Source: Stegostoma tigrinum
Taxonomy: Eukaryota
Direction of reading: 5' to 3'
Assembly (NCBI RefSeq): GCF_030684315.1
Contig: NC_081378.1
Location: forward strand, 37,682,252 to 37,746,251
Length of the DNA stretch: 64,000 nt
The position numbers were made by a program, and so were the translations under genes. The notes beneath the pieces are model-generated. The model made no database searches. It was given only the letters and a program-made list of their open reading frames with translations, and was not told the origin of the DNA. Below are positions 606 to 53,500 of this stretch, one piece after another (position 1 is the stretch's first letter; each line of letters starts with the position of its first letter).

Positions 606-665
606 CAGTTGTGGAGCTGGCAGTAGAACTGGCTGTTGTGGTCGTCCCTGATGGTGATGTGGTTT
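606..665 (-). CDS. MUC19: PTS mini-exon class A (ETTSPSGTTTTASSTASSTT)
   Basis: 60 nt, pyrimidine tract+TAG / GTGAGT, phase 1-1. Confidence 0.85.
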
Positions 666-1382
666 CTATTGTAGAAAAGGAAATGTAAACACAATCTAGA
701 CACAACCTGATTCATGACCAATGAGAAAGATTTCACAGCACTTAGGGGGACATGCAAAAGGATGAGAGAATGTGGAAAAAAGATCAGAACCTATCCTACA
801 AATGGCCAATCCAAAAGCAACCTACCATATCATAAATTGTATCAAGCATCTGTGTCATTAATCTGCTCTCTATCACACGAGTGTTCCAATGGTAGGTCAA
901 GACTGTATTTCTGCTTGTAATAGCATCTAGGGCAGTCGCACACAAATTAGTGTGAGTTGCAAAGTGTCAAGTGTGAGGTGAGGAAACACATTTGGACAGA
1001 ATGACAGAGTTTGCCACTGGGCATTGTAACCTAACTGTGTGACACAACCAATTGATGCCAGGCATCAATCTGCATTAGACGTTTCTTTGATTAGAAACAA
1101 TGTGCGAGGCTAAGTGGAATAGCAGGGCATTGGCATTAATATTAAATGTTTGGAGAGGCTGAATATTTTCAATGGGACGGATGAAAAATGCCTGCACGAG
1201 ATTCCTTTTGATATTGTGGAAATATATTGACTTTTTGTGCTCAAAGCTCTCTCCTCTTGTAGGAATAGAATGAGATGCTGGAAGACCATGGGAACAGCCT
1301 TTGACCGAACAGGAGGTGAAGATTCCATCAATTCAATGGAATCTAAGGCCTTGCAATGCTTACAGGCATCATCGGTACTCAC

Positions 1383-1442
1383 CAGTTGTGGAGCCACTGG
1401 TTGAGCCAGGAGTTGTTGCTGAGACTGTTGTGGAGGTTTGTT
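1383..1442 (-). CDS. MUC19: PTS mini-exon class B (EQTSTTVSATTPGSTSGSTT)
   Basis: 60 nt, CAG / GTGAGT, phase 1-1. Confidence 0.85.
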
Positions 1443-1696
1443 CTGAAATATGAGAGAAATTGAAGTTCACAACACTTTGTCATTTCCAAAAGATTATATG
1501 CTACGTTTCAGAATGAGAGGAGGTAAGTATTTCTCCCAGATACATGGTGGAAATAAATAAATGTTAATGTCCAAACCACCACAGAAAAAGAGAAAAGTGA
1601 CAAATATAAATTGTCAAACAATTGAACCATAAATGAGCAAAGAAGTGATTCTGTTCAAGGGTCACTTCATGTTTAGTAACTGAAGTCTTCACTCAC

Positions 1697-1759
1697 CAGT
1701 TATGGAACTGGAAGTAGACGGTGCTGTAGTGGCGGATACTGTTGTTGAAGTGGTTTCTT
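1697..1759 (-). CDS. MUC19: PTS mini-exon class C (EETTSTTVSATTAPSTSSSIT)
   Basis: 63 nt, TAGAAG acceptor / GTGAGT, phase 1-1. Confidence 0.85.
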
Positions 1760-2334
1760 CTAAAAGATAAACAAATGAACTTCCAGTCAGTATATTCTTT
1801 TTTGATGCTGGGTTGGTTTTTCCTCTTGAAACAGCCCCTCCAGATGGTGTACAAACAAAGCGAAAGATGACGAGCCAGTTTGAAAATTGTGACCACAGCT
1901 GATAAAACATGGTTTATGTCACAATGAGAAGTAACGATCATTCCAAATAAATGAACCCAATTATCCATGTTACATATACTAAGACAGTGCCTTGTTTGAG
2001 GCATCAAATGGCTTTAAAGCACTGAATCTCACCAGCATACCTTCTTTCAACAACATGATGATATTCATAGTGATACCAATGCGAGTGGAAACATTTATAT
2101 TACAGAGACTGACTTCACAGACGCTCTTATATAAAAAAGCTTTCTATTTCATGTTTGTGTCTGAAATATTTCTTAATCAGGTTTGGCGAATAATTAGGAC
2201 ATCAATACCTGTCCACGTCAATGATTTTATTCAGTTTTTGAAGAGCACATCAACACAGTTTCATTGTCAAGGAGCTAAAGATGACGTTTATATCAAAGTC
2301 ATTGGTCTTACGGCTCATGGAAACCATCACATAC

Positions 2335-2403
2335 CTGTTGTTGAGGTACTGGTGGAGCCAGGTGTAGTTGTAGGCGCTGTTGTTGTTCTTGTTGATGTTC
2401 TTA
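2335..2403 (-). CDS. MUC19: PTS mini-exon class D (VRTSTRTTTAPTTTPGSTSTSTT)
   Basis: 69 nt, CAG / GTATGT, phase 1-1. Confidence 0.85.
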
Positions 2404-2640
2404 CTGAAAAAGAAAATGAATAATATTCAATACTTAATCAACATTCACCAGAAACAAATCTGACATGAATTATGATGGAAATGGGACAATCAACTGAATT
2501 CCGATAGAAATTTTACAATGAATTGTGCCAAGTATCAAGCTGACGGTAGTAGTATGTGTTCTCAGTGAGGCTGCTGAAATTCAGAAACCGTTCCACTTGC
2601 AACAAGGTTGCGAATTGTGTTGAATGCATGTATCACTCAC

Positions 2641-2703
2641 CAGCTGTGGAAATGGCAGTTGTCTCAGCTGTGGTGCCTGTCCCTGTTGTTGTAGCTGATT
2701 CTT
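2641..2703 (-). CDS. MUC19: PTS mini-exon class E (EESATTTGTGTTAETTAISTA)
   Basis: 63 nt, CAGAAG acceptor / GTGAGT, phase 1-1. Confidence 0.85.
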
Positions 2704-3305
2704 CTGAAGGAAAAAGAACAGAATCATCAAGTAATTTTTGAACGGCCCATGCGACAGGATTGAGAGAAGACAATCATTCTGTCATTGAAACGGACAGTGG
2801 ACACAGGTATCATGAAAATTATTACAATGACCTGGCAGCTGATAGGAGCCAAAGGTCACTGCAGGAAGGTAATTGCTTTTGAGGTGTGATCACTGTTGGA
2901 GAATAGGAATTGTGCCCATCAAATTTGTTTAAAGCCAGGCAATTCAAATAATCAATCTCAGAAGTTTTGAGTCAAGTGTCAAGACTGTTTGGCACCCTGA
3001 GGGAGCTCACTGCTCATCTTCCAATCAAAGTGAGAGGTATTTTTCAAGCAAGCAGATTGCGCAGGCAAACGTGTAATGCAATGTATCAGCCAGCAGGCCC
3101 AGTGTTGTCTTTCTGTATCAAAGGGTTGATGATCTGACTGAGTTGAATGCACAAGGCTGGACGGAAATCTTCAGCACAGCATCTTCTTTAGGCAAGACAG
3201 TGGTTGATGGACCAGAAGTAACAAAGGAATTTCCCTGTTCAGAGACTTTTTAGGTTCTTGCTTCAAATTGAATCTTCATGTTTACTGAGAAAGGACTGAA
3301 CTCAC

Positions 3306-3365
3306 CAGTTGTGGAGCTGGCAGTAGAACTGGCTGTGGTGGTCGTCCCTGATGTTGATGTGGTTT
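3306..3365 (-). CDS. MUC19: PTS mini-exon class A
   Basis: 60 nt, AG/GT, phase 1-1. Confidence 0.85.
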
Positions 3366-4085
3366 CTATTGAAGAAAAGGAAATGTAATCACAATCTCGA
3401 CACATAAACTGAATCATGACCAATGAGAAAGATTCAACAGCACTTAGGAGGGAGTGCACAAAGGATGAGAGAATGTGTAAAAAAGATCAGAGCCGAACCC
3501 ACAGATAGCCAATCAAAATGCATCCTACCATATCATAAATTGTGTCAACCATCTGTGTCATTAACCTGCTCTCCATCACACGAGTGTTCCAGTGGTAGGT
3601 CAAGACTTTATTTCTGCTTGCAATAGCATCAAGGGTAGTCACACACAATTTAATGTGAGTTTCAAAGTGTCAAGTGTGAGGTGAGGAAACACATTTGAAC
3701 AGGATGACGTTGTTTGCCACTGGGCGTTGTAAGCTAAATGTGTGACACAACCAATTTGATGCCAGGCATCAATCTGCGTTAGATGTTTCTTTAAACAGAA
3801 AAAATGTGTCAGGCTAAGAGGAGTAGAAGGGCAACGGCATCAATATTAAATGTTTGGAGAGTCTGAATATTTTCAATGGGACGGATGAAAAATGCCTGCA
3901 CCAGAATCCTTTTGTTATTGTGGAAATATATTGAATTTTTGTGCTCAAAGCTCTCATCTCTTGTGAAATAGAATAAGATGCTGGAAGACCATGGGAACAG
4001 CCTTTTACCAAACAGGAGGTGAAGATTCCATCACTTCACTGGTATCTAAGGCCTTGCAATTCTTACAGACATCATCGGTACTCAC

Positions 4086-4145
4086 CAGTTGTGGAGCCAG
4101 TGGTTGAGCCAGGAGTTGTTGCTGAGACTGTTGTGGAGGTTTGTT
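4086..4145 (-). CDS. MUC19: PTS mini-exon class B
   Basis: 60 nt, AG/GT, phase 1-1. Confidence 0.85.
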
Positions 4146-4398
4146 CTGAAATATGAGAGAAATTGAAGTTCACAACACTATGATTCAATTCCAAACTAAT
4201 ATATGTCATTTTTTCGGAATGAAATAAGGGAAGCATTCTGGTTGGATACATTATAGCAATCAGTAACTATATGTGTGAAATACACACTGAAATAGAGATA
4301 AGTGAAAGATAGCAGTTGTCCAAAATTTGAACGAATGCTGTGGGCAGTGATTCTGTTCAAATGATACTTAATGTTCAACAAACTAAGTCTTCACTCAC

Positions 4399-4461
4399 CA
4401 GATGTGGAACTGGAAGTCGATGGTGCTGTAGTGGTGAATACTAATGTTGAAGTTGTTTCTT
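4399..4461 (-). CDS. MUC19: PTS mini-exon class F (EETTSTLVFTTTAPSTSSSTS; paralog of C)
   Basis: 63 nt, TAGAAG / GTGAGT, phase 1-1. Confidence 0.85.
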
Positions 4462-5253
4462 CTAAAAGAAAACAAATGAACTTCGAGTCAGTATATTCCT
4501 TTTTGATTTGAGGCTGCTTATTCCACCTCAAGCAGCACCCTCAGGTCATGCACAAACCAACCGATAAAGACCAACCGGTTTGAAAATTCTTACTGCAGCC
4601 GAGAAAGCATGGCACGTGCCCAGAATAAAATAGATGGTGGATGCCACGTTTGTGTAAGGAACAGTAAGACAGTCCTTTCTTTCAGTGATTGACTAGCTTT
4701 GAGGCACTGAAACTCCCCATCAGAGCTTCTTTCAAGAATATGATAATTCTTCAACTATGAGTGGAATCATTAAGAACACAGAGATTGACTTCAAGGATAC
4801 TGATAAGCAATGCCTGTTTCATGTTTGTTCCTGAAATAATTCTGAATGAGGTTTGGCAAACATTAAGTCATTGTCAAGGATCTCATTTTTGCACAGCCAG
4901 AAATCTCTCTCAGATATTTTGAGTCAAGCATAAACCCTCACATTCTGACAGATGACACTACTCATCTTCCAATCAATGTGAAATGTATTTTTCAAGCCAG
5001 CAGAGTGTGCAGGGAAATGTCCAATGCGTTCTATCAGGCAACAGGCAGAGTGTTGTCCTTTCCACATCAAAGAGTTGATGAACTGACTAAATTGAAATCA
5101 CGAGGCTCCATTGAAGACTTAAGCACAAGACGTTCTGAAGGCAGGGTGTGGATCACATACCAAAACTGACAAAGAAGTTTCCCTACACCAATGTTTTTAA
5201 TATTGTTGCTTCAAATTGATTTCTCACGTTAAATGAAAAAGGACTAAACTCAC

Positions 5254-5313
5254 CAGTTGTGGAGCTGGCAGTAGAACTGGCTGTTGTGGTCGTCCCTGAT
5301 GGTGATGTGGTTT
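5254..5313 (-). CDS. MUC19: PTS mini-exon class A
   Basis: 60 nt, AG/GT, phase 1-1. Confidence 0.85.
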
Positions 5314-6030
5314 CTATTGTAGAAAAGGAAATGTAAACACAATCTAGACACAACCTGATTCATGACCAATGAGAAAGATTTCACAGCACTTAGGGGGACA
5401 TGCAAAAGGATGAGAGAATGTGGAAAAAAGATCAGAACCTATCCTACAAATGGCCAATCCAAAAGCAACCAACCATATCATAAATTGTACCAAGCATCTG
5501 TGTCATTAATCTGCTCTCTATCACACGAGTGTTCCAATGGTAGGTCAAGACTGTATTTCTACTTGTAATAGCATCTAGGGCAGTCGCACACAAATTAGTG
5601 TGAGTTGCAAAGTGTCAAGTGTGAGGTGAGGAAACACATTTGGACAGAATGACAGAGTTTGCCACTGGGCATTGTAACCTAACTGTGTGACACAACCAAT
5701 TGATGCCAGGCATCAATCTGCATCAGACGTTTCTTTGATTAGAAACAATGTGCGAGGCTAAGTGGAATAGCAGGGCATTGGCATTAATATTAAATGTTTG
5801 GAGAGGCTGAATATTTTCAATGGGACGGATGAAAAATGCCTGCACGAGATTCCTTTTGATATTGTGGAAATATATTGACTTTTTGTGCTCAAAGCTCTCT
5901 CCTCTTGTAGGAATAGAATAAGATGCTGGAAGACCATGGGAACAGCCTTTGACCGAACAGGAGGTGAAGATTGTATCAATTCAATGGAATCTAAGGCCTT
6001 GCAATTCTTACAGGCATCATCGGTACTCAC

Positions 6031-6090
6031 CAGTTGTGGAGCCAGTGGTTGAGCCAGGAGTTGTTGCTGAGACTGTTGTGGAGGTTTGTT
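6031..6090 (-). CDS. MUC19: PTS mini-exon class B
   Basis: 60 nt, AG/GT, phase 1-1. Confidence 0.85.
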
Positions 6091-6344
6091 CTGAAATATG
6101 AGAGAAATTGAAGTTCACAACACTTTGTCATTTCCAAAAGATTTTATGCTACGTTTCAGAATGAGAGGAGGTAAGTATTTCTCCCAGATACATGGTGGAA
6201 ATAAATAAATGTTAATGTCCAAACCACCACAGAAAAAGAGAAAAGTGACAAATATAAATTGTCAAACAATTGAACCATAAATGAGCAAAGAAGTGATTCT
6301 GTTCAAGGGTCAGTTCATGTTTAGTAACTGAAGTCTTCACTCAC

Positions 6345-6407
6345 CAGTGATGGAACTGGAAGTAGACGGTGCTGTAGTGGCGGATACTCTTGTTGAAGTG
6401 GTTTCTT
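6345..6407 (-). CDS. MUC19: PTS mini-exon class C
   Basis: 63 nt, AG/GT, phase 1-1. Confidence 0.85.
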
Positions 6408-6983
6408 CTAAAAGATAAACAAATGAACTTCCAGTCAGTATATTCTTTTTTGATGCTGGATTGGTTGTTCCTCTTGAAACAGCCCCTCCAGATGGTGTAC
6501 AAACAAAGCGAAAGATGACGAGCCAGTTTGAAAATTGTGACCACAGCTGATAAAACATGGTTTATGTCACAATGAGAAGTAACGATCATTCCAAATAAAT
6601 GAACCCAATTATCCATGTTACATATACTAAGACAGTGCCTTGTTTGAGGCATCAAATGGCTTTATAGCACTGAATCTCACCAGCATACCTTCTTTCAACA
6701 ACATGATGATACTTCATAGTGATACCAATGCGAGTGGAAACATTTATATTACAGAGACTGACTTCACAGACACTCTTATATAAAAAAGTTTTCTATTTCA
6801 TGTTTGTGTCTGAAATATTTCTTAATCAGGTTTGGCGAATAATTAGGACATCAATACCTGTCCACTTCAATGATTTTATTCAGTTTTCGAAGAGCAAATC
6901 AACACAGTTTCATTGTCAAGAAGCTAAAGATGACGTTTATATCAAAGTCATTGGTCTTACGGCTCATGGAAACCATCACATAC

Positions 6984-7061
6984 CTGTTGTTGAGGTACTG
7001 GTGGAGCCAGGTGTAGTTGTAGGCGCTGTTGTTGTTCTTGTTGTTGTTGTTGTTGATGTTC
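6984..7061 (-). CDS. MUC19: PTS mini-exon class D*, long variant (GTSTTTTTRTTTAPTTTPGSTSTSTT)
   Basis: 78 nt, acceptor CAATAG shifted 3 nt, 4 extra ACA codons, GTATGT donor. Confidence 0.8.
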
Positions 7062-7301
7062 CTATTGAAAAAGAAAATGAATAATATTCAATACTTAATC
7101 AACAATCACCAGAAACCAATCTGACATGAATTATGATGGAAATGGGACAATCAACTGAATTCCGATAGAATTTTTACAATGAATTGTGCCAAGTATCAAG
7201 CTGACGGTAGTAGTATGTGTTCTCAGTGAGGCTGCTGAAATTCAGAAACCGTTCCACTTGCAACAAGGTTGTGAATTGTGTTGAATGCATGTATCACTCA
7301 C

Positions 7302-7364
7302 CAGCTGTGGAAATGGCAGTCGTCTCAGCTGTGGTACCTGTCCCTGTTGTTGTAGCTGATTCTT
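7302..7364 (-). CDS. MUC19: PTS mini-exon class E
   Basis: 63 nt, AG/GT, phase 1-1. Confidence 0.85.
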
Positions 7365-7966
7365 CTGAAGGAAAAAGAACAGAATCATCAAGTAATTTTT
7401 GAACGCCCCATGCAGCAGGATTGAGAGAAGACAATCATTCTGTCATTGAAACGGACACTGGACACAGGTATCATGAAAATTATTACAATGACCTGGCAGC
7501 TGATACGAGCCAAAGGTCACTGCAGGAAAGTAATTGCTTTTGAGGTGTGATCACTGTTGGAGAATAGGAATTGTGCCCATCAAATTTGTTTAAAGCCAGG
7601 CAATTCAAATAATCAATCTCAGAAGTTTTGAGTCAAGTGTCAAGACTGTTTGGCACCCTGAGGGAGCTCACTGCTCATCTTCCAATCAAAGTGAGAGGTA
7701 TTTTTCAAGCAAGCAGATTGCGCAGGCAAACGTGTAGTGCAATGTATCAGCCAACAGGCCCAGTGTTGTCTTTCTGTATCAAAGGGTTGATGATCTGACT
7801 GAGTTGAATGCACAAGGCTGGACGGAAATTTTCAGCACAGCATCTTCTTTAGGCAAGACAGTGGTTGATGGAGCAGAAGTAACAAAGGAATTTCCCTGTT
7901 CAGAGACTTTTTAGATTCTTGCTTCAAATTGAATCTTCATGTTTACTGAGAAAGGACTGAACTCAC

Positions 7967-8026
7967 CAGTTGTGGAGCTGGCAGTAGAACTGGCTGTGGT
8001 GGTCGTCCCTGATGTTGATGTGGTTT
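7967..8026 (-). CDS. MUC19: PTS mini-exon class A (CAGCAG acceptor; may extend to 8029)
   Basis: 60 or 63 nt, AG/GT, phase 1-1. Confidence 0.8.
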
Positions 8027-8747
8027 CTGCTGAAGAAAAGGAAATGTAATCACAATCTCGACACGTAAACTGAATCATGACCAATGAGAAAGATTCAACA
8101 GCACTTAGGAGGGAGTGCAAAAAGGATGAGAGAATGTGTAAAAAAGATCAGAGCCTATCCCACAGATAGCCAATCAAAATGCATCCTACCATATCATAAA
8201 TTGTGTCAACCATCTGTGTCATTAACCTGCTCTCCATCACACGAGTGTTCCAGTGGTAGGTCAAGACTTTATTTCTGCTTGCAATAGCATCAAGGGTAGT
8301 CGCACACAATTTAATGTGAGTTTCAAAGTGTCAAGTGTGAGGTGAGGAAACACATTTGAACAGGATGACGTTGTTTGCCACTGGGCGTTGTAAGCTAAAT
8401 GTGTGACACAACCAATTTGATGCCAGGCATCAAACTGCGTTAGATGTTTCTTTAAACAGAAAAAATGTGTCAGGCTAAGAGGAGTAGAAGGGCAACGGCA
8501 TCAATATTAAATGTTTGGCGAGTCTGAATATTTTCAATGGGACGGATGAAAAATGCCTGCACCAGAATCCTTTTGTTATTGTGGAAATATATTGAATTTT
8601 TGTGCTCAAAGCTCTCTCCTCTTGTAGGAATAGAATAAGATGCTGGAAGACCATGGGAACAGCCTTTTACCAAACAGGAGGTGAAGATTCCATCACTTCA
8701 CTGGTATCTAAGGCCTTGCAATTCTTACAGACATCATCGGTACTCAC

Positions 8748-8807
8748 CAGTTGTGGAGCCAGTGGTTGAGCCAGGAGTTGTTGCTGAGACTGTTGTGGAG
8801 GTTTGTT
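8748..8807 (-). CDS. MUC19: PTS mini-exon class B
   Basis: 60 nt, AG/GT, phase 1-1. Confidence 0.85.
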
Positions 8808-9060
8808 CTGAAATATGAGAGAAATTGAAGTTCACAACACTTTGATTCATTTCCAAACTCATATACATCATTTTTTCAGAATGAAATAAGGTAAGTATTC
8901 TGGCTGGATATCTTATAGAAATCAGTAAGTATATGTGTGAAATACATACTAAAATAGAGATAATTGAAATGTAGCAGTTGTCCAAAATTTGAACGAATGC
9001 TGTGGGCAGTGATTCTGTTCAAATGATACTTAATGTTCAACAAACTAAGTCTTCACTCAC

Positions 9061-9123
9061 CAGATGTGGAACTGGAAGTAGACGGTGCTGTAGTGGTGGA
9101 TACTAATGTTGAAGTTGTTTCTT
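9061..9123 (-). CDS. MUC19: PTS mini-exon class F
   Basis: 63 nt, AG/GT, phase 1-1. Confidence 0.85.
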
Positions 9124-9997
9124 CTAAAAGAAAACAAATGAACTTCTAGTCAGTTTATTCCTTTTTAATTTGTGCTGCTTATTCCTCCTCAAGCAGCACC
9201 GCCAGACCTCTAGATCGTGCACAAACACACAAAGTTTACCAGCTGCTTTGAAAATTCTTACTGCAGCTAAGTAACCATGGCATATGGCCCAAATTACTCA
9301 AATAGTGTATGCCACTTTGAAGTTAAGAACAGTAGGACAGAACCTTTTTTGAGCAATTGGCTAGCGATGAGGCACTAAAGCTGACCAGCAATCCTCCTTT
9401 CAAGAGTATGATAACACTTCAACAATTAGTTCAATCATTCTGAAAACAGTGACTAACTTTTAGGAAGCCCTATTTACAGATTGCTGTTTCATGTTTGTTC
9501 CAAAAATAATTCTGAATGCAGTTTCGTGAATAATTAAGACATCAATCTCTGACCACTTCCATCTCTTGAGTCACTTTTGAAAGAGGAAATGAATACAATT
9601 TCATTGTCAAGGATCTCAAGATGCACATCATTTTGCACAGATAGGAATCAATCTCAAAAATTTTGAGTCAAGGATACAGTCTCACATTCTGATAGATGAT
9701 ACTACCTGTCCTCCAATCAATGTAAAAGGTATTTTTCAAGCCAGCAGAGAGTGCAGGCAAATGTTTGTTATGATCTATCAGCCAAGTGGCCCAGTGTTGT
9801 CCTTTCCACATCAAAGAGTTGATGATCTGACGAAATTGAATTCGTGTGGTTGCATTGAAGACTAAAGCACAACAAATTCCGAAGGCAGAATGTGGATCAT
9901 GGACCAAAATTGACAAAGCAATTTCCCAACATCCATGTTTTTAATGTTGTTGCTTCACATTGATCTCTCACCTTTAATGAAAATGGAGTCAACTCAC

Positions 9998-10057
9998 CAG
10001 TTGTGGAGCTGGCAGTAGAACTGGCTGTGGTGGTTGTCCCTGATGTTGATGTGCTTT
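9998..10057 (-). CDS. MUC19: PTS mini-exon class A (ESTSTSG variant)
   Basis: 60 nt, AG/GT, phase 1-1. Confidence 0.85.
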
Positions 10058-10767
10058 CTATTGAAGGAAAGGAAATGTAAACACAATCCATACGCATAAC
10101 CTGAATCATGATCAATGAGTGCGATTCATAAGCATTTAGGAGGGAATGGTCAAATGGAGAGAGAATGCGTAAAAAAGATCAGAAACTAGCACACAGATGG
10201 CCAATCCAGAGGAATCCTGCTATATCATAACTTGTACAAAGAATTTGCGTCATTCTCAAACTCTCTGTCACATGGGATTTCCTGTGGTAGGCCAAGACAT
10301 CGTTTCTGCTTGTAAAATCATCAAGGGCAGTCAGACACAGATTAATGTGAGTCAAGTGCAAGGTGCAGAAAAATATTTGAACATAATGACAGGTCGCCAC
10401 TTGGAGTTGTAACCTCAATGTGTGGAACAAGCAACTTGATGGCAGTGATCGAATTACAACAGACGTTTCTGTGCATAGAAACAATGTGCGAGGCTAAGTG
10501 GAGTAGCAGGGCAACGGTCTCAATGTTAAATGTTTGTAGAGGCTGAATAGATTCAGTGGAAAGATTCGCAAATGTCTGCAGAAGAATCGTTCTGTCATTC
10601 TATAAAAGTCCATGATCTTTTCAGCTCAAAATATTCTACTGTTGCAGAAATAGAATAAGATACTGGAAGACCATGGGAACAGCCTTTTACCGAACAGGAG
10701 GTGAAGATTCCATCAATTCACTGGTATCTAAGGCCTTGCAATTCTTACAGACATCATCGGTACTCAC

Positions 10768-10827
10768 CAGTTGTGGAGCCAGTGGTTGAGCCAGGAGTTG
10801 TTGCTGAGACTGTTGTGGAGGTTTGTT
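10768..10827 (-). CDS. MUC19: PTS mini-exon class B
   Basis: 60 nt, AG/GT, phase 1-1. Confidence 0.85.
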
Positions 10828-11078
10828 CTGAAATATGAGAGAAATTGAAGTTCACAACACTATGATTCAATTCCAAACTAATATATATCATTTTTTCGGC
10901 ATGAAATAAGGGAAGTATCCTGGCTGGATACATTATAGCAATCAGTAACTATGTGTGAAATACACACTGAAATAGAGATAAGTGAAAGATAGCAGTTGTC
11001 CAAAATTTGAACGAATGCTGTGGGCAGTGATTCTGTTCCAACGACACTTAATGTTCAACAAACTAAGTCTTCACTCAC

Positions 11079-11141
11079 CAGATGTGGAACTGGAAGTCGA
11101 TGGTGCTGTAGTGGTGAATACTAATGTAGAAGTTGTTTCTT
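11079..11141 (-). CDS. MUC19: PTS mini-exon class F
   Basis: 63 nt, AG/GT, phase 1-1. Confidence 0.85.
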
Positions 11142-25344: not shown

Positions 25345-25440
25345 AGGGGGATGGTGGGAGGGAACTGGTCTTTACTCTCCATCTTCGGTCCGCCTCCCCC
25401 TCTCTCCCTATTTATTCCAGTTCCCTCCCACCATCCCCCT

Positions 25441-42824: not shown

Positions 42825-42887
42825 CAGATGTGGAACTGGAAGTCGATGGTGCTGTAGTGGTGAATACTAATGTTGAAGTTGTTTCTT
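42825..42887 (-). CDS. MUC19: PTS mini-exon class F
   Basis: 63 nt, AG/GT, phase 1-1. Confidence 0.85.
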
Positions 42888-43678
42888 CTAAAAGAAAACA
42901 AATGAACTTCTAGTCAGTATATTCCTTGTCGATTTGAGGCTGCGTATTCCACATCAAGCAGTACGTCCAGATCGTACACAAACAAACCGAAAATGACCAA
43001 CCGGTTTGAAAATTCTTACTGCAGCTGAGAAAGCATGGCACGTGCCCAGAATAAAACAGATGGTGGATGCCACATTCATCTGAGGAACAGTAAGAAGTTC
43101 TTTCTTTCAGTGATTGACTAGGTTTGAGGCACTGAAACTCCCCATCAGAGCTTCTTTCAAGAATATGATAAATCTTCAACTATGAGTGGAATCAATAAGA
43201 ACACAGAGACTGACTTCAAGGATACTGATATGCAAATGCCTGTTTCATGTTTGTTCCTGAAATAATTCTGAATGAGGTTTGGTGAACACTAATTCATTGT
43301 CAAGGATCTCATTTTTGCACAGCCAGAAATCTCTCTCAGATATTTTGAGTCAAGCATAAAGCCTCACATTCTGACAGATGACACTACTCATCTTCCAATC
43401 AATGTGAAATGTATTTTTCAAGGCAGCAGAGTGTGCAGGGAAATGTCCAATGCGTTCTACCAGGCAACAGGCAGAGTGTTGTCCTTTCCACATCAAAGAG
43501 TTGATGAACTGACTAAATTGAAATCACGAGGCTCCATTGAAGACTTAAGCACAAGACGTTCTGAAGGCAGGGTGTGGATCACATACCAAAACTGACAAAG
43601 GAGTTTCCCTACACCAATATTTTTAATGTTGTTGCTTCAAATTTATTTTGTAAGTTTCATGAAAAAGGACTAACTCAC

Positions 43679-43738
43679 CAGTTGTGGAGCTGGCAGTAGA
43701 ACTGGCTGTGGTGGTCGTCCCTGATGTTGATGTGGTTT
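43679..43738 (-). CDS. MUC19: PTS mini-exon class A
   Basis: 60 nt, AG/GT, phase 1-1. Confidence 0.85.
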
Positions 43739-44112
43739 CTATTGTAGAAAAGGAAATGTAAACACCATCCATACACAAAAACTGAATGAAGACAAATGAG
43801 TGTGATTCATAAGCATTCAGGAGGGAATGGTCAAATGAAAAGAGACCCCGTAAACTGATCAGAATCTATCACACAGGTGGCCAATCCACAGGAATCCTGC
43901 TATATCATAACATGCATCATTCTCTTTCTCTCTGCTGCAAGGGTTTTCCTGTGATAGGCCAAGACATCGTTTCTGCTTGTAAAATCATCAAGTGCAGTCG
44001 GGCACAGATTAATGTGAGTTGTAAAGTGTCAAGTGTGAGGTTAGAAAAATATTTGAACATAGTGACAATTCTCTAAGGCCTTGCAATTCTTACAGACATC
44101 ATCGGTACTCAC

Positions 44113-44172
44113 CAGTCGTGGAGCCAGTGGTTGCGCCAGGAGTTGTTTCTGAAACTGTCGTGGAGGTTTGTT
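44113..44172 (-). CDS. MUC19: PTS mini-exon class B
   Basis: 60 nt, AG/GT, phase 1-1. Confidence 0.85.
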
Positions 44173-44427
44173 CTGAAATATGAGAGAAATTGAATTTCAC
44201 AACACTTTGTTCACTTCCAAAAGAATGTATAACACTTTCCAGAATGAGAGGAGGTAAGTATTACTCCCAGATACATGGTGGAAATAAATAAATGTTAACG
44301 TCCAAACCACTACAGAAAAAGAGAAAAGTGACAAATATAAATTGTCAAACAATTGAACAATAAATGAGCAAAGAAGTGATTCTGTTCAAGGGTCACTTCA
44401 TGTTTAGTAACTGAAGGCTTCACTCAC

Positions 44428-44490
44428 CAGTTATGGAACTGGAAGTAGTCGGTGCTGTAGTGGCGGATACTGTTGTTGAAGTGGCTTCTT
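44428..44490 (-). CDS. MUC19: PTS mini-exon class C
   Basis: 63 nt, AG/GT, phase 1-1. Confidence 0.85.
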
Positions 44491-44663
44491 CTAAAAGATA
44501 AACAAATGAACTTCCAGTCAGTATATTCCTTTTTGATGTTGGTTTGGTTGTTCCTTGAAACAGAATCTCCAGATGGTGTACAAATAAAGCTAAAGATGAC
44601 GAGCCAGTTTTAAATTGTGACTTCATCTGACAAAATATCGTCATCATTGCATCTATCACTCAC

Positions 44664-44726
44664 CAGTTGTGGAACTGGCAGTCGTCTCTGTTGTGGTACC
44701 TGTCCCTGTTGTTGTAGCTGATTCTT
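44664..44726 (-). CDS. MUC19: PTS mini-exon class E
   Basis: 63 nt, AG/GT, phase 1-1. Confidence 0.8.
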
Positions 44727-45311
44727 CTGAAGGGCAAAGAAAAGAATCAACAACTAATAATCCAATGCCACCTGAGGGAAGATAATCATTCCGCCATTGA
44801 AATGGACAGTGGAATTGGATCACATTTAATGTATTGCAATGGCCTGGCAGCTGATAGGAATGAAAGGACTATGCAGGAAGGTCATTGTTTTTGAGGTGTA
44901 GTCACTTTTGGAGAATAGGGTTTGTGCCCATCAAATTTTGCACAGTCAGACAAGTCAGAAAACCAATCTCAGAAACTTTGAGTCAAGTGTAAAACCTGTT
45001 TGCCATCCTGACAGTGCTCACTACTCATCTTTGAATCAAAATGAGAGGTATTTTTCAAGCAAGCAGAGAGAGCAGGCAAATATCAGTATAATATATCTGC
45101 TAACAGGTCCAGTGTTATTGAGTCTTTATCAAAGAGTTGATGATCTGGCTAAATTGAATGCACGAGGCTCCACAGAAGATTCCAGCAAAGCACCTTCTTA
45201 AGGCAGAATGTGGATCATAGACCAAAACTGACAATAAATTTCCCTGTCCTGACGTTTTTTAAATTCTTGTTTTAATTTTTTTCCCACCTTTTTAAAAATG
45301 GACTAACTCAC

Positions 45312-45371
45312 CAGTTGTGGAGCTGGCGGTAGAACTGGCTGTGGTGGTCGTCCCTGATGTTGATGTGGTTT
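45312..45371 (-). CDS. MUC19: PTS mini-exon class A
   Basis: 60 nt, CAG/GT, phase 1-1. Confidence 0.85.
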
Positions 45372-46038
45372 CTGTTGAAGAAAAGGAAATGTAATCACAA
45401 TCTATATATATAAACTGAATCAAGAGGGAGTTCCTACTGTATTCTGGAGGAAATGAAGAAATGAAGAGAAAATATGTATGAAAGTTCAAAACATGTCACA
45501 CAGATGGCCAATCAGGAAAATGCTGCCATATCATAACTTGTGTAAAGCAACTGCATCGTTCTCGTGCTCTCCATCACATGAGTTTTCCTGTGATCATTTC
45601 TGCTTGTAAAACATCAAGGACAGTCGGACACAAGTTACTGTGAATTGCAAAGTGTCAAGTGTGAGGTGAAGGGAAACATTTGAACATATTGACGTGGTTT
45701 GGGACTAGAGGTTGTAACCTCAATTTGTTGTGCAACCAACTTTGAATAGAAACAATGTGCGAGGCTAAGTGGAAGACAGGGCAATGGCCTCGATGTTAGG
45801 TGTTTGGAGGAGCTGAATAGTTTCAATGGCAAGATTGGGAAATGTTGGCACCAGAGTTGTTCCATCCTTCTGTAAAAGTGTATGATCTTTAATGCTTGAA
45901 ATATTCCTTTGGTTCAGAAATAGAATAAGACGCTGGAAGGCCTTGGCAACAGCCTGTCACTGAACAGGAGGTGAAGCTTTGATCAATTCTCTGGTATCTA
46001 AGGCCTTGCAATTCTTAGCAGAAGACATCGTTACTCAC

Positions 46039-46098
46039 CAGTTGTGGAGCCAGTGGTTGAGCCAGGAGTTGTTGCTGAGACTGTTGTGGAGGTTTGTT
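46039..46098 (-). CDS. MUC19: PTS mini-exon class B
   Basis: 60 nt, AG/GT, phase 1-1. Confidence 0.85.
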
Positions 46099-46909
46099 CT
46101 GAAATATGAGAGAAATTGAAGTTCACAACACTTTGATTCAATTCCAAAGTAATATGTGTTGATTTTCAGAATAAAACCAGGGAGGGATTCTGGCCAGATA
46201 CATTATGGAAATAAAAAGTGCCATAGCATTGTTTATGTGGATATCTCATTGCATCATTTTATCACTTATTTGAAGCTTGTTACATTCATTAATAATACAG
46301 AGACTGCCTTCAATGATGCTTATGTAGGAAGAGCCCTCTTTCATGTTTGTTTCTGAAATAATGCATATTGAGATTTGTACACATCTGTACAATCTGTACA
46401 CATAAACTGAGTCAAGACCAATGAGAGAGTTTCTTCCGCATTCAGTAAGGAATGCCTAGGTAATGAAAGAATGTGTAAAAATGTTCAAAACCTGTCCCAC
46501 AGATGGCCAATCAGGAAGGATCCTGCCATATCATAACTTGTAGAAAGCATCTGCATCATTCTCCTGCTCTCCATCACATGAATGTTCCTGTGACAGGTCA
46601 AGACACTGTTTCTGCTTGGAAAAGCATCAAGGCCAGTCGGATACAGATTAGTGCATGTTGCAAAGTGTCAAGTGTGAGTTGAGGAAACACGTTTTGAACA
46701 GAATGACATAGTTTGCCACTGGGGATTGTAACCTGAATGTGTGACACAACCAATTTGATGCCAGTGATCGATTTAGTTTCCATCAGCTTCTCCACAATGA
46801 ATTTCAAGCTGATGGGATGAATATGCATTCTCAGTAAGGCTGCTGAAATTCAGGAACCATTCTGCTTGCAACAGGGTTGTAAATTGTGTTCAATGCATGT
46901 ATCACTCAC

Positions 46910-46972
46910 CAGCTGTGGAACTGACAGCCGTCTCAGTTGTGGTACCTGTCCCTGTTGTTGTAGTTGATTCTT
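46910..46972 (-). CDS. MUC19: PTS mini-exon class E
   Basis: 63 nt, AG/GT, phase 1-1. Confidence 0.8.
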
Positions 46973-47558
46973 CTGAAGGACAAACAAAAACTTTAACAAC
47001 CAATATGTCCAATACTATGTTGGACAGAATTCAGAGGAAAAGCAGACTCAAGGAGCATTTTGTCATTGAAATGGGCAGTGCAAACGAATAATGTTAAAAG
47101 TATTATAATGGCCTGACACCTGACATGAGGCAAAGTCACTGCGGAAAGGCAACTGCTTTTGAGATATAGTCACTGTTGGAAAATAAGGATGGTGCCCATC
47201 AATTTTTGCCCAGACAGAAAATCAAATCTCGGAAATTTTGATTTAAGTGTGAAGATTGTTTGGTACCCTGACAGATCTCACTGCTCATCTTCCAATCAAT
47301 GTGAGAGATAGTTTTGAAGCAAGCAGAGAGTGCAGGCAAAGGACCAATATAATCTAACAGCCAACAGGCCCAGTGTTATCTTTTCTATATCAAATAGTTG
47401 ATGAAGACTTCATCCACTGAAGGCTTCAGCACAACATCTTTGGAAGATAGAAGGTGGACCATGTACTAAGAATGACAAAGGGATTTCCCTGTCTATATGT
47501 TTTGTAGGATCTTGATTCAAATAGTTTACCACATTTAATGAAAAAGGACTAAACTCAC

Positions 47559-47618
47559 CAGTTGTGGAGCTGGCAGTAGAACTGGCTATGGTCGTCGTCT
47601 CTGATGTTGATGTGATCT
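47559..47618 (-). CDS. MUC19: PTS mini-exon class A, divergent (EITSTSETTTIASSTASSTT)
   Basis: 60 nt, CAG/GT, phase 1-1. Confidence 0.8.
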
Positions 47619-48286
47619 CTGTTTAAGAAAGCAAAATGTAATCACAATCCATGCGCATAAACTGAAACAAGACCAATGAGAGGGAATGCCTAAGTAATGA
47701 AAGAATGTGTAAGAAAGTTCAAAAACTGTCCTACAGATGGCCAATCAGGAAGGATCCTGCTATATCATTACTTGTAAAAAACATCTGCGTTGTTCTTATG
47801 CTCTCCATCACATGAATGTTCCTGTGATAGGCCAAGACACCATTTCTGTTTGCCATAGCATCAAGGGCAGTTGGGCACAGATTAATGTGAGCTGCAAAGT
47901 GGCCAGCGTGAGGTGTGGAAATATATTTGACCACAATGACAGTTTGCCACTGGGGGTTGTAACCTAAATGTGTGGTGCAACCAAATTGATGCCAGCCATC
48001 AAAGTGCATTAGATGTTTCTGTGTATAGAAACAATGTGTGAGGCTAAGTGGAGTAGCAGGGCAATGGTCTCAATGTTAAATGTTTGTAGAGGCTGAATAG
48101 ATTCAGTGGGAAGATTGGCAAATGTCTGCACAAGAATCTTTTATGCTAAAAGCTCTCTCCTCTTGTACGTACAGAATATGATGCTGAAGACCATGGAACA
48201 GCCTTTTACCGAACAGGAGGTGAAGATTCCATCAATTCACTGGTATCTAAGGCCTTGCAATTCTTACAGGCGTCATCGGTACTCAC

Positions 48287-48346
48287 CAGTTGTGGAGCCA
48301 GTGGTTGAGCCAGGAGTTGTTGCTGAGACTGTTGTGGAGGTTTGTT
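48287..48346 (-). CDS. MUC19: PTS mini-exon class B
   Basis: 60 nt, AG/GT, phase 1-1. Confidence 0.85.
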
Positions 48347-48465
48347 CTGAAACATGAGAGGAATTAAAGTTCACAACACTTTGATTCAATTCCAAAATAT
48401 TTTATATTGCCTTTAAGAATGAAAGGAAAATAAGATTCCTGTTATATGCATTTATGGAAATAAAT

Positions 48466-48784
48466 GGAGTGACATGTTGGCTCAGTGGTTAGCACTGCTG
48501 CTTCACAGCACCAGGGTCCCGTGTTCGATTCCACCCTCGGGTGACTGTCTGTTTGGAGTTTGCACATTCTCCCTGTGTCTGTGTGGGTTTCCTCCAGGTG
48601 TTACGATTTCACACCGCCCAAAGATGTACAGGGTAGATGGATTGGCCATGCTAAGTTGCCCATTGTATTCAGGGATGTGTAGATTATGTGGGGTACAGGG
48701 GGATGTGTCTGGGTGGGATGCTCTGAGGGTCGGTGTGGACATGTTTGGCCGAAGGCCCTGTTTTCACACTGTTGGGATTCTACG
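48466..48784 (+). mobile_element. tRNA-derived V-SINE (HE1-like)
   Basis: A box TGGCTCAGTGG (48478), B box GTTCGATTCC (48523), V-domain GGAGTTTGCACATTCTCCCTGTGTCTGTGTGGGTTTCCTCC, LINE-like tail GGCCGAAGGCCCTGTTTTCACACTGT. Confidence 0.85.
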
Positions 48785-48934
48785 TAATGTATAAGAACAA
48801 AATAATTCTTCATTTTGAGTCCATTACAGGAGAAGAGAGAGGTCGATCATCTCAATTATCAAAATAATTTCACTAAAGCTGAGTGAACTGATCATGTTCA
48901 AAGTTTATTGAACACATTCTAAGACTTCATTCAG

Positions 48935-49000
48935 CACTTGATGCACTGGAAGTAGACATTGGTGTAGTGGTGTATACCTCTAGGTGCTGTTTAAAAAATT
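48935..49000 (-). pseudogene. Decayed class C/F mini-exon (pseudo-exon)
   Basis: Aligns to F (ACTGGAAGTAGAC...TGTAGTGGTG) in the expected position, but the donor reads CTGAAT instead of GTGAGT and the 5' part is scrambled. Confidence 0.6.
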
Positions 49001-49377
49001 CTAAATTGAAGAAAATTAGAAATGTGGGCATGTCTTCCTGTGGTGTAATATTCTCTGGCTGTATAGGAACACTCTAATCATCTTCAACAGAATACCGCAG
49101 GCATTTTTATGTCCAGCAGAGGGTATAGACAAAGGTTACGCCTAATCTCCCATCTAACAGGTAACACCCACTCCTAGTATTGTCCTTTCTCGGGCAAACG
49201 TTTAAGATCTGATTCGATTTATCGCATAAGACTCTGGTGAGAGATTTGAGCATAATCCCTTCTGAACTGAGAATGTGGCCTCAGACCAACAGTGTAAACA
49301 TTTCCTGACCAGGAGTTTGTTACAATCTTGCTTCAAATTACTTTCCCATGTTAATGAAATAGGATGGCCTCACTTAC

Positions 49378-49437
49378 CAGGTGTGGAACTGGCAGTCGAA
49401 CTAGCTGTTGTAATTGTCTCTGTTGTTGTAGTTGTTT
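49378..49437 (-). CDS. MUC19: Divergent PTS mini-exon, A-like (ETTTTTETITTASSTASSTP)
   Basis: 60 nt, AAG / GTAAGT, phase 1-1. Confidence 0.75.
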
Positions 49438-50029
49438 CTTTTAAAGCAAAATAAATGCAGTCACAATTAATACAAACAACTTGAATCAGGACAGCACTGA
49501 ATGAATTTCAAAGGCATTCAGCAGGGGATACACAAAGGAAGAGAGAATTATTATGAAGTTTATAAACTATTCTCACTCATGCATAATTACCTAACACCCT
49601 GCTATTTTACAATTTGTTAAACCATCCACACCATTCACTAACTCTTCATCAAACAAGTGTCATTGTGAATGTTTCAGACGCTGGTCAGATCACCATTTAT
49701 GATCTCTCACTCTTATGACACTTAGAATACAGAGGGTGCATTGAAAGGCTGAAGGAGATGCAATGCAGAATACAATGCCATCTGTTAGAAATTGGATATT
49801 TCTCTGTTATTCTTTAGCTAGCCACCTTGTCTCCCATCTGGAGAAAGATCACATGCATCATGATGCTCAATGCAAAATTCAATCATAATCATCACTTTAG
49901 CTCAAACTATTCTTGCTAAACAGTTAAAAATATGCTTAATTTCATTGCAAGATGCAATTGCCCTTTGAAGATTAATTCGTTTCATTCAGCCAGAGAGCAT
50001 GAGTCAATGCTTTAAATTGTAAGCTCTAA

Positions 50030-50890
50030 GTTGGCAATTCAAAATAAGGCATAATCAAGAAGTACCAGACCACAGAATTGTGAATAATGTTATATCTCAT
50101 TGCATAGGTAGAGAGTTGCAGCTTGAACACAAAATTAGCTAAGCAATGGTATGCAGTGAGCAATGGTCAATGGTTACTTTATGGGAGTGGTGGGAACCTT
50201 GCTTTTCATGATATAAAATAATAGTGAAAATCTTGGTGTACAGAGGAGAATTTCAAAGTCTGTGGTGATATGAACATCAGAAGCATTGTAAACTGAGGAG
50301 AACACCAAAGGAAGTAGGCAAGTTGATGGATTGGGTCGAAAGGTGGCAATTATACTTTAATGTGAATTAACATGACACATTTGCATGGGAATAACATGGA
50401 TAGTCAATGGAAAATAAGAAATAAATAACATTCATAAGAGGGTGCAGTAGTAGAGGAAGCTGCTCGTGTATGTACATGGATCATTAACACTGGCAGGACA
50501 GATGGATAGAGCAATTAATGAAGCACACATTGACCTTGGCTGTATTAAGACAACCATTAATAGAAAAGCAAGGAGGATATGCTGAACTTACACAAGGCAC
50601 TTGATAAAACTTATCTGGAGTTTGGGTATGTTTCTGGGCATTTCATTAAAGGAGAGATGTAAATGCATAGGAGAGCAGACTGTAGACCTTTCTAAAAATG
50701 GTTGCCTGGGTGAAAAACTGCATCCCAGTTGGAAAGATTGGACAGATAAGGCCATGTATTTGGGAATAAGAATGATAACAGGAGATCTGAAATGCATGCC
50801 TTGAAGTTGAGTGGAGCCTTGATCAAATTCAGGCATTCAAAATAGTATTAAATGATTATTTGAACAGAAACACAATGGAATGGTACGGAG
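50030..50890 (+). mobile_element. Old degenerate CR1-like LINE fragment
   Basis: Remnants of RT 3' region, e.g. AAAGCAAGGAGGATATGCTGAACTTACACAAGGCACTTG; many stops; boundaries approximate. Confidence 0.6.
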
Positions 50891-51065
50891 AGATTGCTTT
50901 ACATTTGTTTTTGAAATAATTCAGGACGAGATTTGTCAACACTGAGGCTAATAATCTATAGCCTTGAACATGATTTGAATGTTCCTCAAAGAGCAGAGAA
51001 GTAAACTGCCAACGATAAGGAGTTCGAGATTTATATCCAAGGCTTTATGTTTGTACATCACTCAC

Positions 51066-51122
51066 CTGTTGTGGAAGCTGTGGTAAAACCAGGTGTAGTT
51101 GGAAGTATTGTTGTTGTTGTCC
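51066..51122 (-). CDS. MUC19: Divergent PTS mini-exon, D-like (GTTTTILPTTPGFTTASTT)
   Basis: 57 nt, poly-T+AAG / GTGAGT, phase 1-1. Confidence 0.75.
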
Positions 51123-51385
51123 CTTTTGAAAAAAAAGATATTCAAAACCATAAACCTTAATTTGATTCCGAAAGATGCTTTAACGGACATTCACCAAAAA
51201 CCAAACTAACACAGATTCAGATCAAACTAAGACAAAAGTTTAGATCACATCAGATTCTTCAAGAAGATTTGTGTGACATGTGAAGCCAACGTGGCTAATA
51301 CACTTTCACAGTGAGGTTGCTGAAGATCAAAAACCATTCCATTTAATGAACTTGGTAACGTGTATTCAATGCATGCATCACTCAC

Positions 51386-51448
51386 CAGTTGTGGAACTGG
51401 CAGTTGTCTCAGTCGTAGTGCCTGGCCCTGTTGTTGTAGTTGATTCTT
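51386..51448 (-). CDS. MUC19: Divergent PTS mini-exon, E-like (EESTTTTGPGTTTETTASSTT)
   Basis: 63 nt, CAGAAG / GTGAGT, phase 1-1. Confidence 0.8.
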
Positions 51449-52007
51449 CTGAAGGATGAAAAAAAGCATTAACAATCAAACAGCCAATTGCACATGGGAT
51501 GGAATTGAGAGGGGAGACAGACTCAACAAGTATTTCAAAATAGAAATGGAGGATACAAACAGATAATATTAAAACTATTATAATAACTTGGGACCTGATA
51601 TGAGCCAAAGAACATTGCAGAAAGGAAATTATGTTTGAGGTGTAGTCGCAGTTGGGGAATAGGAATGATGTCAATCAATTTTAGGACAATACATACAGCT
51701 GTACAAAAATCTATTAGAAATATTGGCTCAAGCCCATCTTCAATATAATACCACAGTCATTTTCCAGTTCACCAGAGAGTACAGACAATGCTCAGCTTTG
51801 CGTCTGATTCAACAGTCAACACTTCAGTCCCATTATTGACCTTCCTCAGTTGAACATCTTAAAAATCTGACTAGATTTAATGCACAAGGCTCTGGAGGGG
51901 GGTTTTGATCCGAACATTTCCTGAATTGAACGAAGACTGACAACAGGTTTATTACACTTTTGCTCTACACTTCTTTCTCTTAATTAATGACGTAAGAAAT
52001 CACTCAC

Positions 52008-52067
52008 CAGTTGAGGAACTGGCGGGAGACCTAGATGTAATGGTTGTCTCTGTTGTTGTACTTGTTT
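52008..52067 (-). CDS. MUC19: Divergent PTS mini-exon, A-like (ETSTTTETTITSRSPASSST)
   Basis: 60 nt, AAG / GTGAGT, phase 1-1. Confidence 0.75.
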
Positions 52068-52589
52068 CTTTAGAAGAAAAACAAATGCAATCACAATCAA
52101 CATACAGAACCTGAATCGAAACAGTGCTAAAAGAGTTTCAATAGCATTCAGCAGGGAATACACAAATGAACAGAAAATTTGCAAGAAACATTATTCCCAT
52201 TGATGCTCAAGCAGACAATATCCCATTATATTGTTGCTTGTGTAAACCATCTGTACCTTTCATCAGCTCTCCATCAAATGAGTGTCATTGTGTTGGATTG
52301 AGACACTGATTCCCATTACCATTTATGATTCATAACAGAATAGATATTAGTTATACAATAGCTGATCTCCTGGTCCTTGATCTGGAGACAGTTATCACAT
52401 AACAAGATAAGTCATGTAAATTCAATTACGTTTATCACCTAACTCAACACATAGGTGCCAAGTGGTTAAATGTTCTGCAAAAATTAGCTGCATGATCTAG
52501 TTACCCTTTGGAAATCTGTTGCATTCGCTTAAACAGGAAAGATTGTTTCAAGAACATTTACATTGGCAAATGTGAGTTCTAAGTTGGCA

Positions 52590-53205
52590 ATTCCAAATGA
52601 GGTATAACAAAAAAGTAAAGTGCCATATCACAAACTTGTCAGAAAAGCCCACACACACAGAATAAAGGGAGCAGTTGCAACATGGATATAGATTTCGCTG
52701 AGCAATGGGCAACAGAGATCAATGGTCAATAGATACCTATTTTTGTGCTGGAAGAAGGATAATAGTGAATTAGCAATGATATGGGCAATGCTCCCCTTGC
52801 TATTCCTGATATACCTTAGCAGTCTAGATCTCTTTGTGCAGAGTACACTTCTTAATAAAGTGAAGGAGCAGAGGGACCTGGATATATGTGCACATAGATC
52901 ATTGCAATTAATAGGACAGGTGAAGACAGCAGATAATACGATATCCAGTAGCCGGATTGGGTCATGGAGTAAAAGAGCAAGGAGGATATGCTGAATTTAT
53001 ATGAGGCCTTTGCTGGATTATTGTGTGTCGCTTACTTCACAGGAAGTATGTGAGCATACTAGAGAGAGAGTAGAGATGTATAATAATGGTTCCCAAGAAT
53101 GAGAAACTTCAGTTACTGGGAATAGTTTGGAGAGGTTTGGAGCATTCTCCTCAGAGAGAAAGCTAAGAGGAGATTCAATAGAAGTTTTGAAAATCATGAA
53201 TATAA
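52590..53205 (+). mobile_element. Old degenerate CR1-like LINE fragment
   Basis: GAAGGAGCAGAGGGACCTGG, AGCAAGGAGGATATGCTGAATTTATATGAGGCC; similar to the 50030-50890 fragment; boundaries approximate. Confidence 0.6.
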
Positions 53206-53345
53206 TGGGATCTTTTGCACCTACTTAGAAGATAGATGGTACCTTTGTTTAATTTCATTCAAAATTCAGGGCATCTGACAGTGCGTCACTCCCTTAGCAC
53301 CTTATTGTGGTGGAAATTTGTTTTCGGGTTCTGTTTCTTAAACTA
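53206..53345 (-). mobile_element. Degenerate DeuSINE (SacSINE1/AmnSINE1-like) fragment
   Basis: TGGGATCTTTTGCACCTAC...GGCATCTGACAGTGCGTCACTCCCTTAGCAC resembles the Deu-domain antisense from memory. Confidence 0.4.
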
Positions 53346-53407
53346 TATAAATTAATATTGTACTTGCCAACAGTCACATTGCTTTATAAGTATGGCTTTC
53401 TCTTTAC

Positions 53408-53500
53408 CTGTGCTCTTTATTGTTGAAGAAGATGTTGTCAGCGATATAAATGGAGTTGAAGTGGATGATACAGTTGTGCTCACAGTTGTGGGTGTAAATC
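53408..53500 (-). CDS. MUC19: First PTS exon (xFTPTTVSTTVSSTSTPFISLTTSSSTIKST)
   Basis: 93 nt, CAG / GTAAAG, phase 1-1, open and Thr/Ser-rich; weak pyrimidine tract. Confidence 0.7.

Follow-up and report, generated by a model that had tools for sequence, protein, structure and literature searches.

A shark mucin of the MUC19 clade with a threonine- and serine-rich domain predicted to be spread over about 110 mini-exons

The minus strand of a 64,000-nucleotide (nt) stretch of the genome of the shark Stegostoma tigrinum (NCBI RefSeq assembly GCF_030684315.1, contig NC_081378.1, positions 37,682,252 to 37,746,251 of the forward strand; here called the window) carries 82 short, frame-symmetric exons in a row. 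We read them as belonging to the Thr/Ser-rich middle of a MUC19-clade mucin, which would consist of about 110 predicted mini-exons that were tandemly duplicated, are mostly spliced constitutively and change in length at the level of the allele. The probability of this reading is roughly 0.6. Blocks of three and five exons were likely multiplied together with their introns, and splicing probably joins most of the resulting mini-exons into the same transcript. Whole repeat units could then be added or removed by unequal crossing-over or by deletion, where the breakpoints fall in the introns that make up 90% of the DNA; the frame would survive such gains and losses because every exon begins and ends in phase 1. 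The geometry of the crossing-over step can be read from the DNA, and module order, mosaic introns and decayed copies point to the process. Length would vary mainly between alleles, and in-frame skipping would be tolerated and probably make a minor contribution.

The exons were located by a caller that was blind to length and frame. It relied on the donor consensus (a good donor was required) and on upstream Pro/Thr/Ser content, and it set the acceptor by pyrimidine content only. Across the 64-kb window it made 84 calls on the minus strand, 82 of them inside 606-53500; the calls at 55771 and 56824, upstream of the array, were excluded as not being array members. The plus strand of the window, taken as a control, gave 3 calls, and 20 block shuffles gave 5-11 calls each, of which 0-4 were multiples of 3. 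In the array, 81 of the 82 automatic calls were multiples of 3. The automatic acceptor of the first exon led to 71 nt, out of frame; set by hand to 53408-53500 this exon has 93 nt, as also used by the annotated model P0002 (XP_059510759.1). When all 42 distinct exon sequences were compared with the window by BLAST, 82 exon-like loci were found, every one already called. The exons fall into six families plus four divergent members, with identities of 92-98% within families and 55-83% between them:

606..53500, minus strand: array of 82 phase-1 mini-exons rich in Pro, Thr and Ser (PTS), with introns of 173-2,894 nt (median 602); runs beyond window position 1
49378..53500, minus strand: four divergent 5' mini-exons (53408-53500, 52008-52067, 51066-51122, 49378-49437)
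606..47618, minus strand: family A, 20 exons of 60 nt (one 60 or 63); low ends 606, 3306, 5254, 7967, 9998, 11935, 14638, 16671, 18610, 21312, 24015, 27044, 29075, 32129, 34842, 36855, 41732, 43679, 45312, 47559
1383..48346, minus strand: family B, 20 exons of 60 nt; low ends 1383, 4086, 6031, 8748, 10768, 12713, 15421, 17441, 19388, 22092, 24795, 27825, 29855, 32907, 35623, 39809, 42511, 44113, 46039, 48287
2641..51448, minus strand: family C, 11 exons of 63 nt; low ends 2641, 7302, 13973, 20647, 23350, 26379, 34177, 41068, 44664, 46910, 51386
1697..44490, minus strand: family D, 9 exons of 63 nt; low ends 1697, 6345, 13028, 19703, 22406, 25109, 33221, 40124, 44428
4399..42887, minus strand: family E, 10 exons of 63 nt; low ends 4399, 9061, 11079, 15734, 17754, 28138, 30168, 31215, 35936, 42825
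2335..40830, minus strand: family F, 8 exons of 69 nt (78 nt at 6984 and 33859); low ends 2335, 6984, 13667, 20341, 23044, 26073, 33859, 40762

The lengths are 60 nt in 41 exons, 63 in 31, 69 in 6, 78 in 2, and 93 and 57 in one each. All 82 end in G, i.e., in phase 1, and the donor is GTGAGT in 72, GTATGT in 8 and another sequence in 2. Together they amount to 5,133 nt or 1,710 amino acids (aa) without a stop, which is 9.7% of the 52,895 nt covered; 44% of the residues are Thr, 23% Ser and 4% Pro, and the sum of 71% is that of a central PTS-rich repeat domain. In all 6,724 ordered exon pairs the junction residue is E, V, G or A and never a stop. A preliminary description of this DNA had claimed just such a set of 82 stop-free phase-1 exons of 57-93 nt; the blind caller confirms it far above the controls, and the family counts agree within one exon, although the letters are assigned differently. 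Its statement that any subset of exons is frame-safe holds for the cognate splice sites. Seven exons also have a weaker out-of-frame donor 26 nt downstream, and 9 have an AG at +4.

Two points go beyond that description: the 82 exons are not independent observations, and the array continues to the left of the window with at least 26 clear exons, which brings the clear ones to 108 and the coding capacity to ~2,236 aa. With two probable short exons, also to the left, the whole array comprises ~110 exons over ~83 kb; three decayed copies lie there too. Tandem Repeats Finder, run with periods of up to 500, detected only five small arrays; the repeat unit spans kilobases.

The array sits in the frame of a gel-forming mucin. 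An 83-aa D3 frame in the window matches P0002, a Stegostoma tigrinum protein named mucin-19-like, at 100%, and the 28 exons upstream of the array map to the same model. Its N-terminal part contains three VWD, three C8 and three TIL domains, i.e., the VWD-C8-TIL unit three times over, as is typical of gel-forming mucins, and its best matches among solved proteins are MUC5B, MUC5AC and MUC2 (890-906 bits). Within the window this part is represented by the following exons:

54744..54775, minus strand: final Cys-rich exon ahead of the array, with a phase-1 end
57560..63998, minus strand: nine D'/D3 exons (TIL, VWD3, C8) of the same gene

Another 18 N-terminal exons follow to the right of the window, out to about +78,700. 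To the left of the array there is first a CysD exon (E=4.5e-15), which is entered in phase 1, followed by exons for a fourth VWD and C8, VWC-like exons and a cystine knot (PF00007), which occupies two exons ~49-50 kb left of the window, one of them above the cut-off. These C-terminal exons are open and match the CysD, C8 and cystine-knot models. The array thus lies between three VWD-C8-TIL units and a single CysD, a fourth VWD and a cystine knot, and the earlier assignment to the PTS domain of a gel-forming mucin is borne out. From what is known of the family, the product is predicted to be a secreted, polymeric, gel-forming mucin with an O-glycosylated domain of ~2,250 aa. The public model P0002 uses mini-exons 1-17 in order and without a skip and then reads into an intron; it is truncated after 17 of ~110 repeat exons. 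The public model of a neighbouring gene, P0035, also stops early inside a repeat array by reading into an intron.

Exons and introns repeat together as modules of five (B-A-C-F-D) or three (B-A-E) exons. These build higher-order repeats with 87-98% identity, e.g., one of 12.9 kb at 96% with an offset of 6,674. Over the 108 clear exons, 87 family-to-family adjacencies keep the module order and 3 break it. The shared phase is explained by the tandem duplication of some six exon types and is therefore one inherited property, not 82 separate facts; by itself it does not imply alternative splicing. According to the logic of exon shuffling, symmetric exons are those that survive tandem duplication. 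That exons can be duplicated or deleted without frameshift, as had been proposed, is visible in the DNA itself: apart from the modules, there are an E-E junction, a C-D junction and, at the array's 3' edge, the three decayed copies. The last have lost acceptor or donor and lie at about -6,940, -12,970 and -23,940 relative to the window. In the single E-E junction the intron is a mosaic of three normal introns and the B and A exons are gone, which points to a genomic deletion that left the frame unaffected. Every change of exon length preserves the frame as well: one C copy has 39 nt, and the F exon grew from 69 to 78 nt by a 3-nt shift of the acceptor and a 12-nt expansion. Two introns have received insertions, each in one module copy only; they are listed after the E-E intron:

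30231..31214, minus strand: intron of the single E-E junction
37220..39391, minus strand: LINE-like insertion of 2.17 kb bearing a reverse transcriptase, in one B-A intron
25218..25527, strand not assigned: interspersed-repeat insertion of 310 nt with a target duplication of ~15 nt, in one F-D intron

Copies of the LINE-like (long interspersed nuclear element) insertion, 95-96% identical, are found elsewhere in the mucin cluster.

The copies also allow selection to be gauged. Among the 70 of 94 copies that were kept for having homologous flanks (24 were dropped), 31 of 378 exon columns vary (8.2%) versus 222 of 1031 intron columns (21.5%; Fisher p=1e-9). Against the same intron columns, the splice core varies in 1 of 48 (2.1%; p=3e-4) and the pyrimidine tract in 9 of 108 (8.3%; p=6e-4), with the reservation that the columns are not fully independent. 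An earlier contrast of 0.18 versus 0.61 variants per column had been inflated by non-homologous flanks and was replaced. The sole exon gap measures 12 nt, and all 12 intron gaps have lengths not divisible by 3. Exon variants are synonymous in 25 cases and replacements in 36, 23 of which lead to A, S, T or P and none to a stop. Statistically, splice sites, frame and Thr/Ser content are kept by selection, a pattern that supports the prediction of real and used exons. All six families can be recognised in a bamboo-shark protein at 68-89% identity, each above all 100 shuffles; in 9 of 10 other shark and ray PTS regions tested they were not clearly recognisable and produced scattered matches only.

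How the exons are used is the more delicate question. The preliminary description had proposed that a single allele might yield a combinatorial set of mucins, regulated skipping of mini-exons being the main source of length and sequence polydispersity; we consider this possible, yet rather doubtful. It draws on the fact that all exon pairs join in frame and without a stop, on an in-frame tandem acceptor in 31 of the 82 exons, and on titin PEVK, an example of differential splicing among more than 100 short repeated exons (PMC6469411). The splice sites of the array, however, are uniformly strong. Mini-exon acceptors are slightly more pyrimidine-rich than those of the D-domain exons, and donors match the consensus at 8.0 of 9 positions versus 6.7 of 9 for the 28 D-domain exons of the same gene, a comparison that loses weight because the distinct contexts number only 24, drawn from six families, and because a good donor was a condition for being called. 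Strong sites and fixed exon order favour the prediction of mostly constitutive inclusion. A search for RNA runs turned up none, which counts neither for nor against skipping. Four unclassified public runs over 44,000-48,500 pass through the introns without joints; they behave as DNA and carry no information on splicing.

Relatives offer isoforms to compare. The predicted models of these species presumably rest on transcripts. The orthologue in sawfish (clade support 100) has isoforms numbered up to X45, with units missing. Fourteen were compared with X1, so that 15 of the 42 cluster members are covered: 12 of the 14 are short of precisely one or two complete 37-aa periods (periods as read from the proteins), one lacks 69+1 aa, one a single residue, and none half a period. 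Such loss of whole periods would be the pattern expected from mis-mapping of short reads in near-identical repeats. In two rays, all three isoform pairs compared differ by one unique unit of 18-20 aa, which can slide by only 1-2 residues. Mis-mapping between identical copies explains this poorly; it suggests real but limited skipping, with 1-2 isoforms per gene and no combinatorial set. As for MUC19 of dog, dingo and otter (P0085-P0092, P0158-P0171), many isoforms are annotated that differ by repeat blocks of 11-90 aa.

Constitutive splicing with allelic length change remains the preferred reading, and several points weigh against it, among them the narrow base of the donor comparison and the isoforms of sawfish and rays just described; skipping may be more than a minor contribution. 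Strong sites are also compatible with regulated skipping. Exon use at this gene is a prediction from sequence, P0002 does not connect the array to the C-terminal exons, allelic length variation is a prediction from a single assembled haplotype, and a crude omega of 0.68 means weak constraint at the protein level.

More radically, the array might be real but largely unused, either because only its 5' exons are spliced in or because the gene is decaying. The end of P0002 after exon 17, the three decayed copies and the two mobile-element insertions inside introns would fit, but we regard this as very improbable: none of the 82 exons in the window contains a stop or frameshift, exons and splice sites are constrained relative to their own introns throughout the homogenised part, the C-terminal exons are open and match their domain models, and the bamboo shark retains all six families. 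Still more improbable is an array inflated or scrambled by assembly error. Copies up to 96-98% identical over 5-13 kb might invite such errors, and no contig spans the tested stretch 44,000-48,500. There is, however, no N in 1.4 Mb, divergence between copies is 2-12% and copies have insertions of their own, the sequence of 44,000-48,500, introns included, recurs with few differences in four public runs (which represent no more than two samples and may be those of the assembly itself), and the same design is seen in the independent arrays of four paralogs.

These paralogs belong to a cluster of seven gel-forming mucin genes, in tandem with one inverted, at 37,190,000-38,423,000 of the same contig. 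Five of the seven have mini-exon PTS arrays; phase-1 donors were counted in 18/18, 85/85, 100/100, 56/57 and 36/38 of the calls with good acceptors, although some calls are ends of CysD exons. The other two have large open frames instead (798 aa; 438 + 844 aa). Six beta-propeller exons and two kinase exons of LRRK2 lie directly upstream of the cluster on the same strand; they were identified by Pfam on the flank frames, while a search for the COR domain did not pick up LRRK2 on this contig. On the other (left) flank no gene, including CNTN1, was found in the 147 of 183 frames scanned. Human MUC19 sits between LRRK2 and CNTN1, in the order SLC2A13-LRRK2-MUC19-CNTN1 (PMC7019335). In a tree of the D-domains (36 rows over 558 columns, built by a fast search, rooted on lamprey and with no MUC6 row) all seven genes group with MUC19, apart from MUC2/MUC5, with an SH-aLRT (Shimodaira-Hasegawa-like approximate likelihood ratio test) of 98.7. 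An earlier tree with a single MUC19 row had supported the MUC19 grouping with 68, its deep nodes with 40-68, and gave no direction of change between large-exon and mini-exon design; in the second, each of the two large-exon genes branches from within the mini-exon genes (94.7, 96.5), without a clade test. By its D-domains and its neighbour the gene is classified as a MUC19-clade gel-forming mucin beside LRRK2.

Its domain layout tells a different story. CysD and fourth VWD are arranged as in MUC2/MUC5, whereas mammalian MUC19 lacks both (PMC4948705); some spiggins share the fourth VWD. The stickleback spiggins are a tandem MUC19 family (PMC2180178), so that tandem paralogs, like the LRRK2 neighbour, are familiar in this clade, and three Muc19 paralogs had already been noted in Callorhinchus (PMC4948705, PMC2180178, PMC10557577, PMC7019335) versus the seven of the shark cluster. 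An unlikely extension of these findings is that an old, expanded MUC19 cluster has been retained in cartilaginous fishes and that splicing across the ~300 frame-neutral mini-exons of five of its genes yields many mucin lengths and CysD spacings per allele. If it were true, the two sibling large-exon genes would be a built-in control for splicing-based versus allele-based polydispersity.

Xenopus FIM-B.1, named as a precedent in the preliminary description, is reportedly the subject of a splicing paper. Like the shark gene, the skin mucins MucXS/Otogl and FIM-C.1/FIM-B.1 of Xenopus are gel-forming with a multi-exon central domain; MucXS is multiexonic (PMC5789918) and FIM-C.1 polymorphic by alternative splicing (PMC7177656). 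The principle of many small PTS exons is therefore known, as had been said, but the other example, MUC19, was only half right: the human repeat is a 30-bp variable number tandem repeat inside a ~12-kb exon (PMC10557577). The closest precedent is chicken Muc13, with one exon per 20-aa repeat, for which Lang et al. already proposed control of length by splicing, and an ancestral layout, in 2006 (PMC1552070). In chicken (and zebrafish) Muc13, too, the PTS domain is spread over many near-identical exons, but there they belong to a transmembrane SEA mucin whose repeats, at least 12 in number, are of a single type, whereas the shark gene is a secreted-type VWD mucin with ~110 exons, six types and higher-order modules. 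Chicken MUC2 encodes its PTS region in exons 32-45 with repeated cassettes, fewer and larger than the shark mini-exons; one in-frame shorter splice form and no massive alternative splicing is described in the source (PMC3549977). Titin PEVK resembles the array in having a set of more than 100 short repetitive exons, with expansion and contraction through duplication (PMC6469411), but it is an unrelated protein with documented differential splicing, whereas exon use in the shark array is predicted from genomic sequence.

A literature search that largely left subscription journals aside found no description in sharks of this architecture or cluster, and no test of splicing-tuned mucin length in repeat exons at this scale. 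What is new is an unusually large variant of a known principle, in a seven-gene MUC19-clade cluster with both PTS designs. The locus is a large, gap-free case with copy-diagnostic single-nucleotide polymorphisms for the question of combinatorial splicing, and the coexistence of five mini-exon and two large-exon genes is relevant to a possible ancestral status of the multi-exon layout. For nomenclature the locus matters as well, since names like mucin-2-like or mucin-6-like are attached to MUC19-clade genes in sharks and rays; the mucin names reported in shark skin proteomics are mucin-2/5B-like only (PMC10707392).

A few observations concern other mucin genes. Several paralog lineages of the cluster have ray orthologues. 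The closest paralog (92% in the D-domains; same contig, 37,881,000-37,928,000) has a module of 3.2-3.7 kb, repeated about eleven times, that consists of four mini-exons plus a CysD exon, so that CysD spacing itself is modular, whereas the array gene has a single CysD. In the paralog at 37,510,000-37,558,000, 85 mini-exons with lengths of 45-63 nt were called; they form a five-exon module of 2.8 kb that is very regular. On contig C20, about 9,561,900-9,581,050, minus strand, there is an open frame of 6,375 aa with CysD and 69% PTS, which groups with MUC2/MUC5. Contig C36 shows ~24 consecutive half-length CysD matches at 48,115,000-48,227,000, which suggests another repeat gene with its CysD split over two exons.

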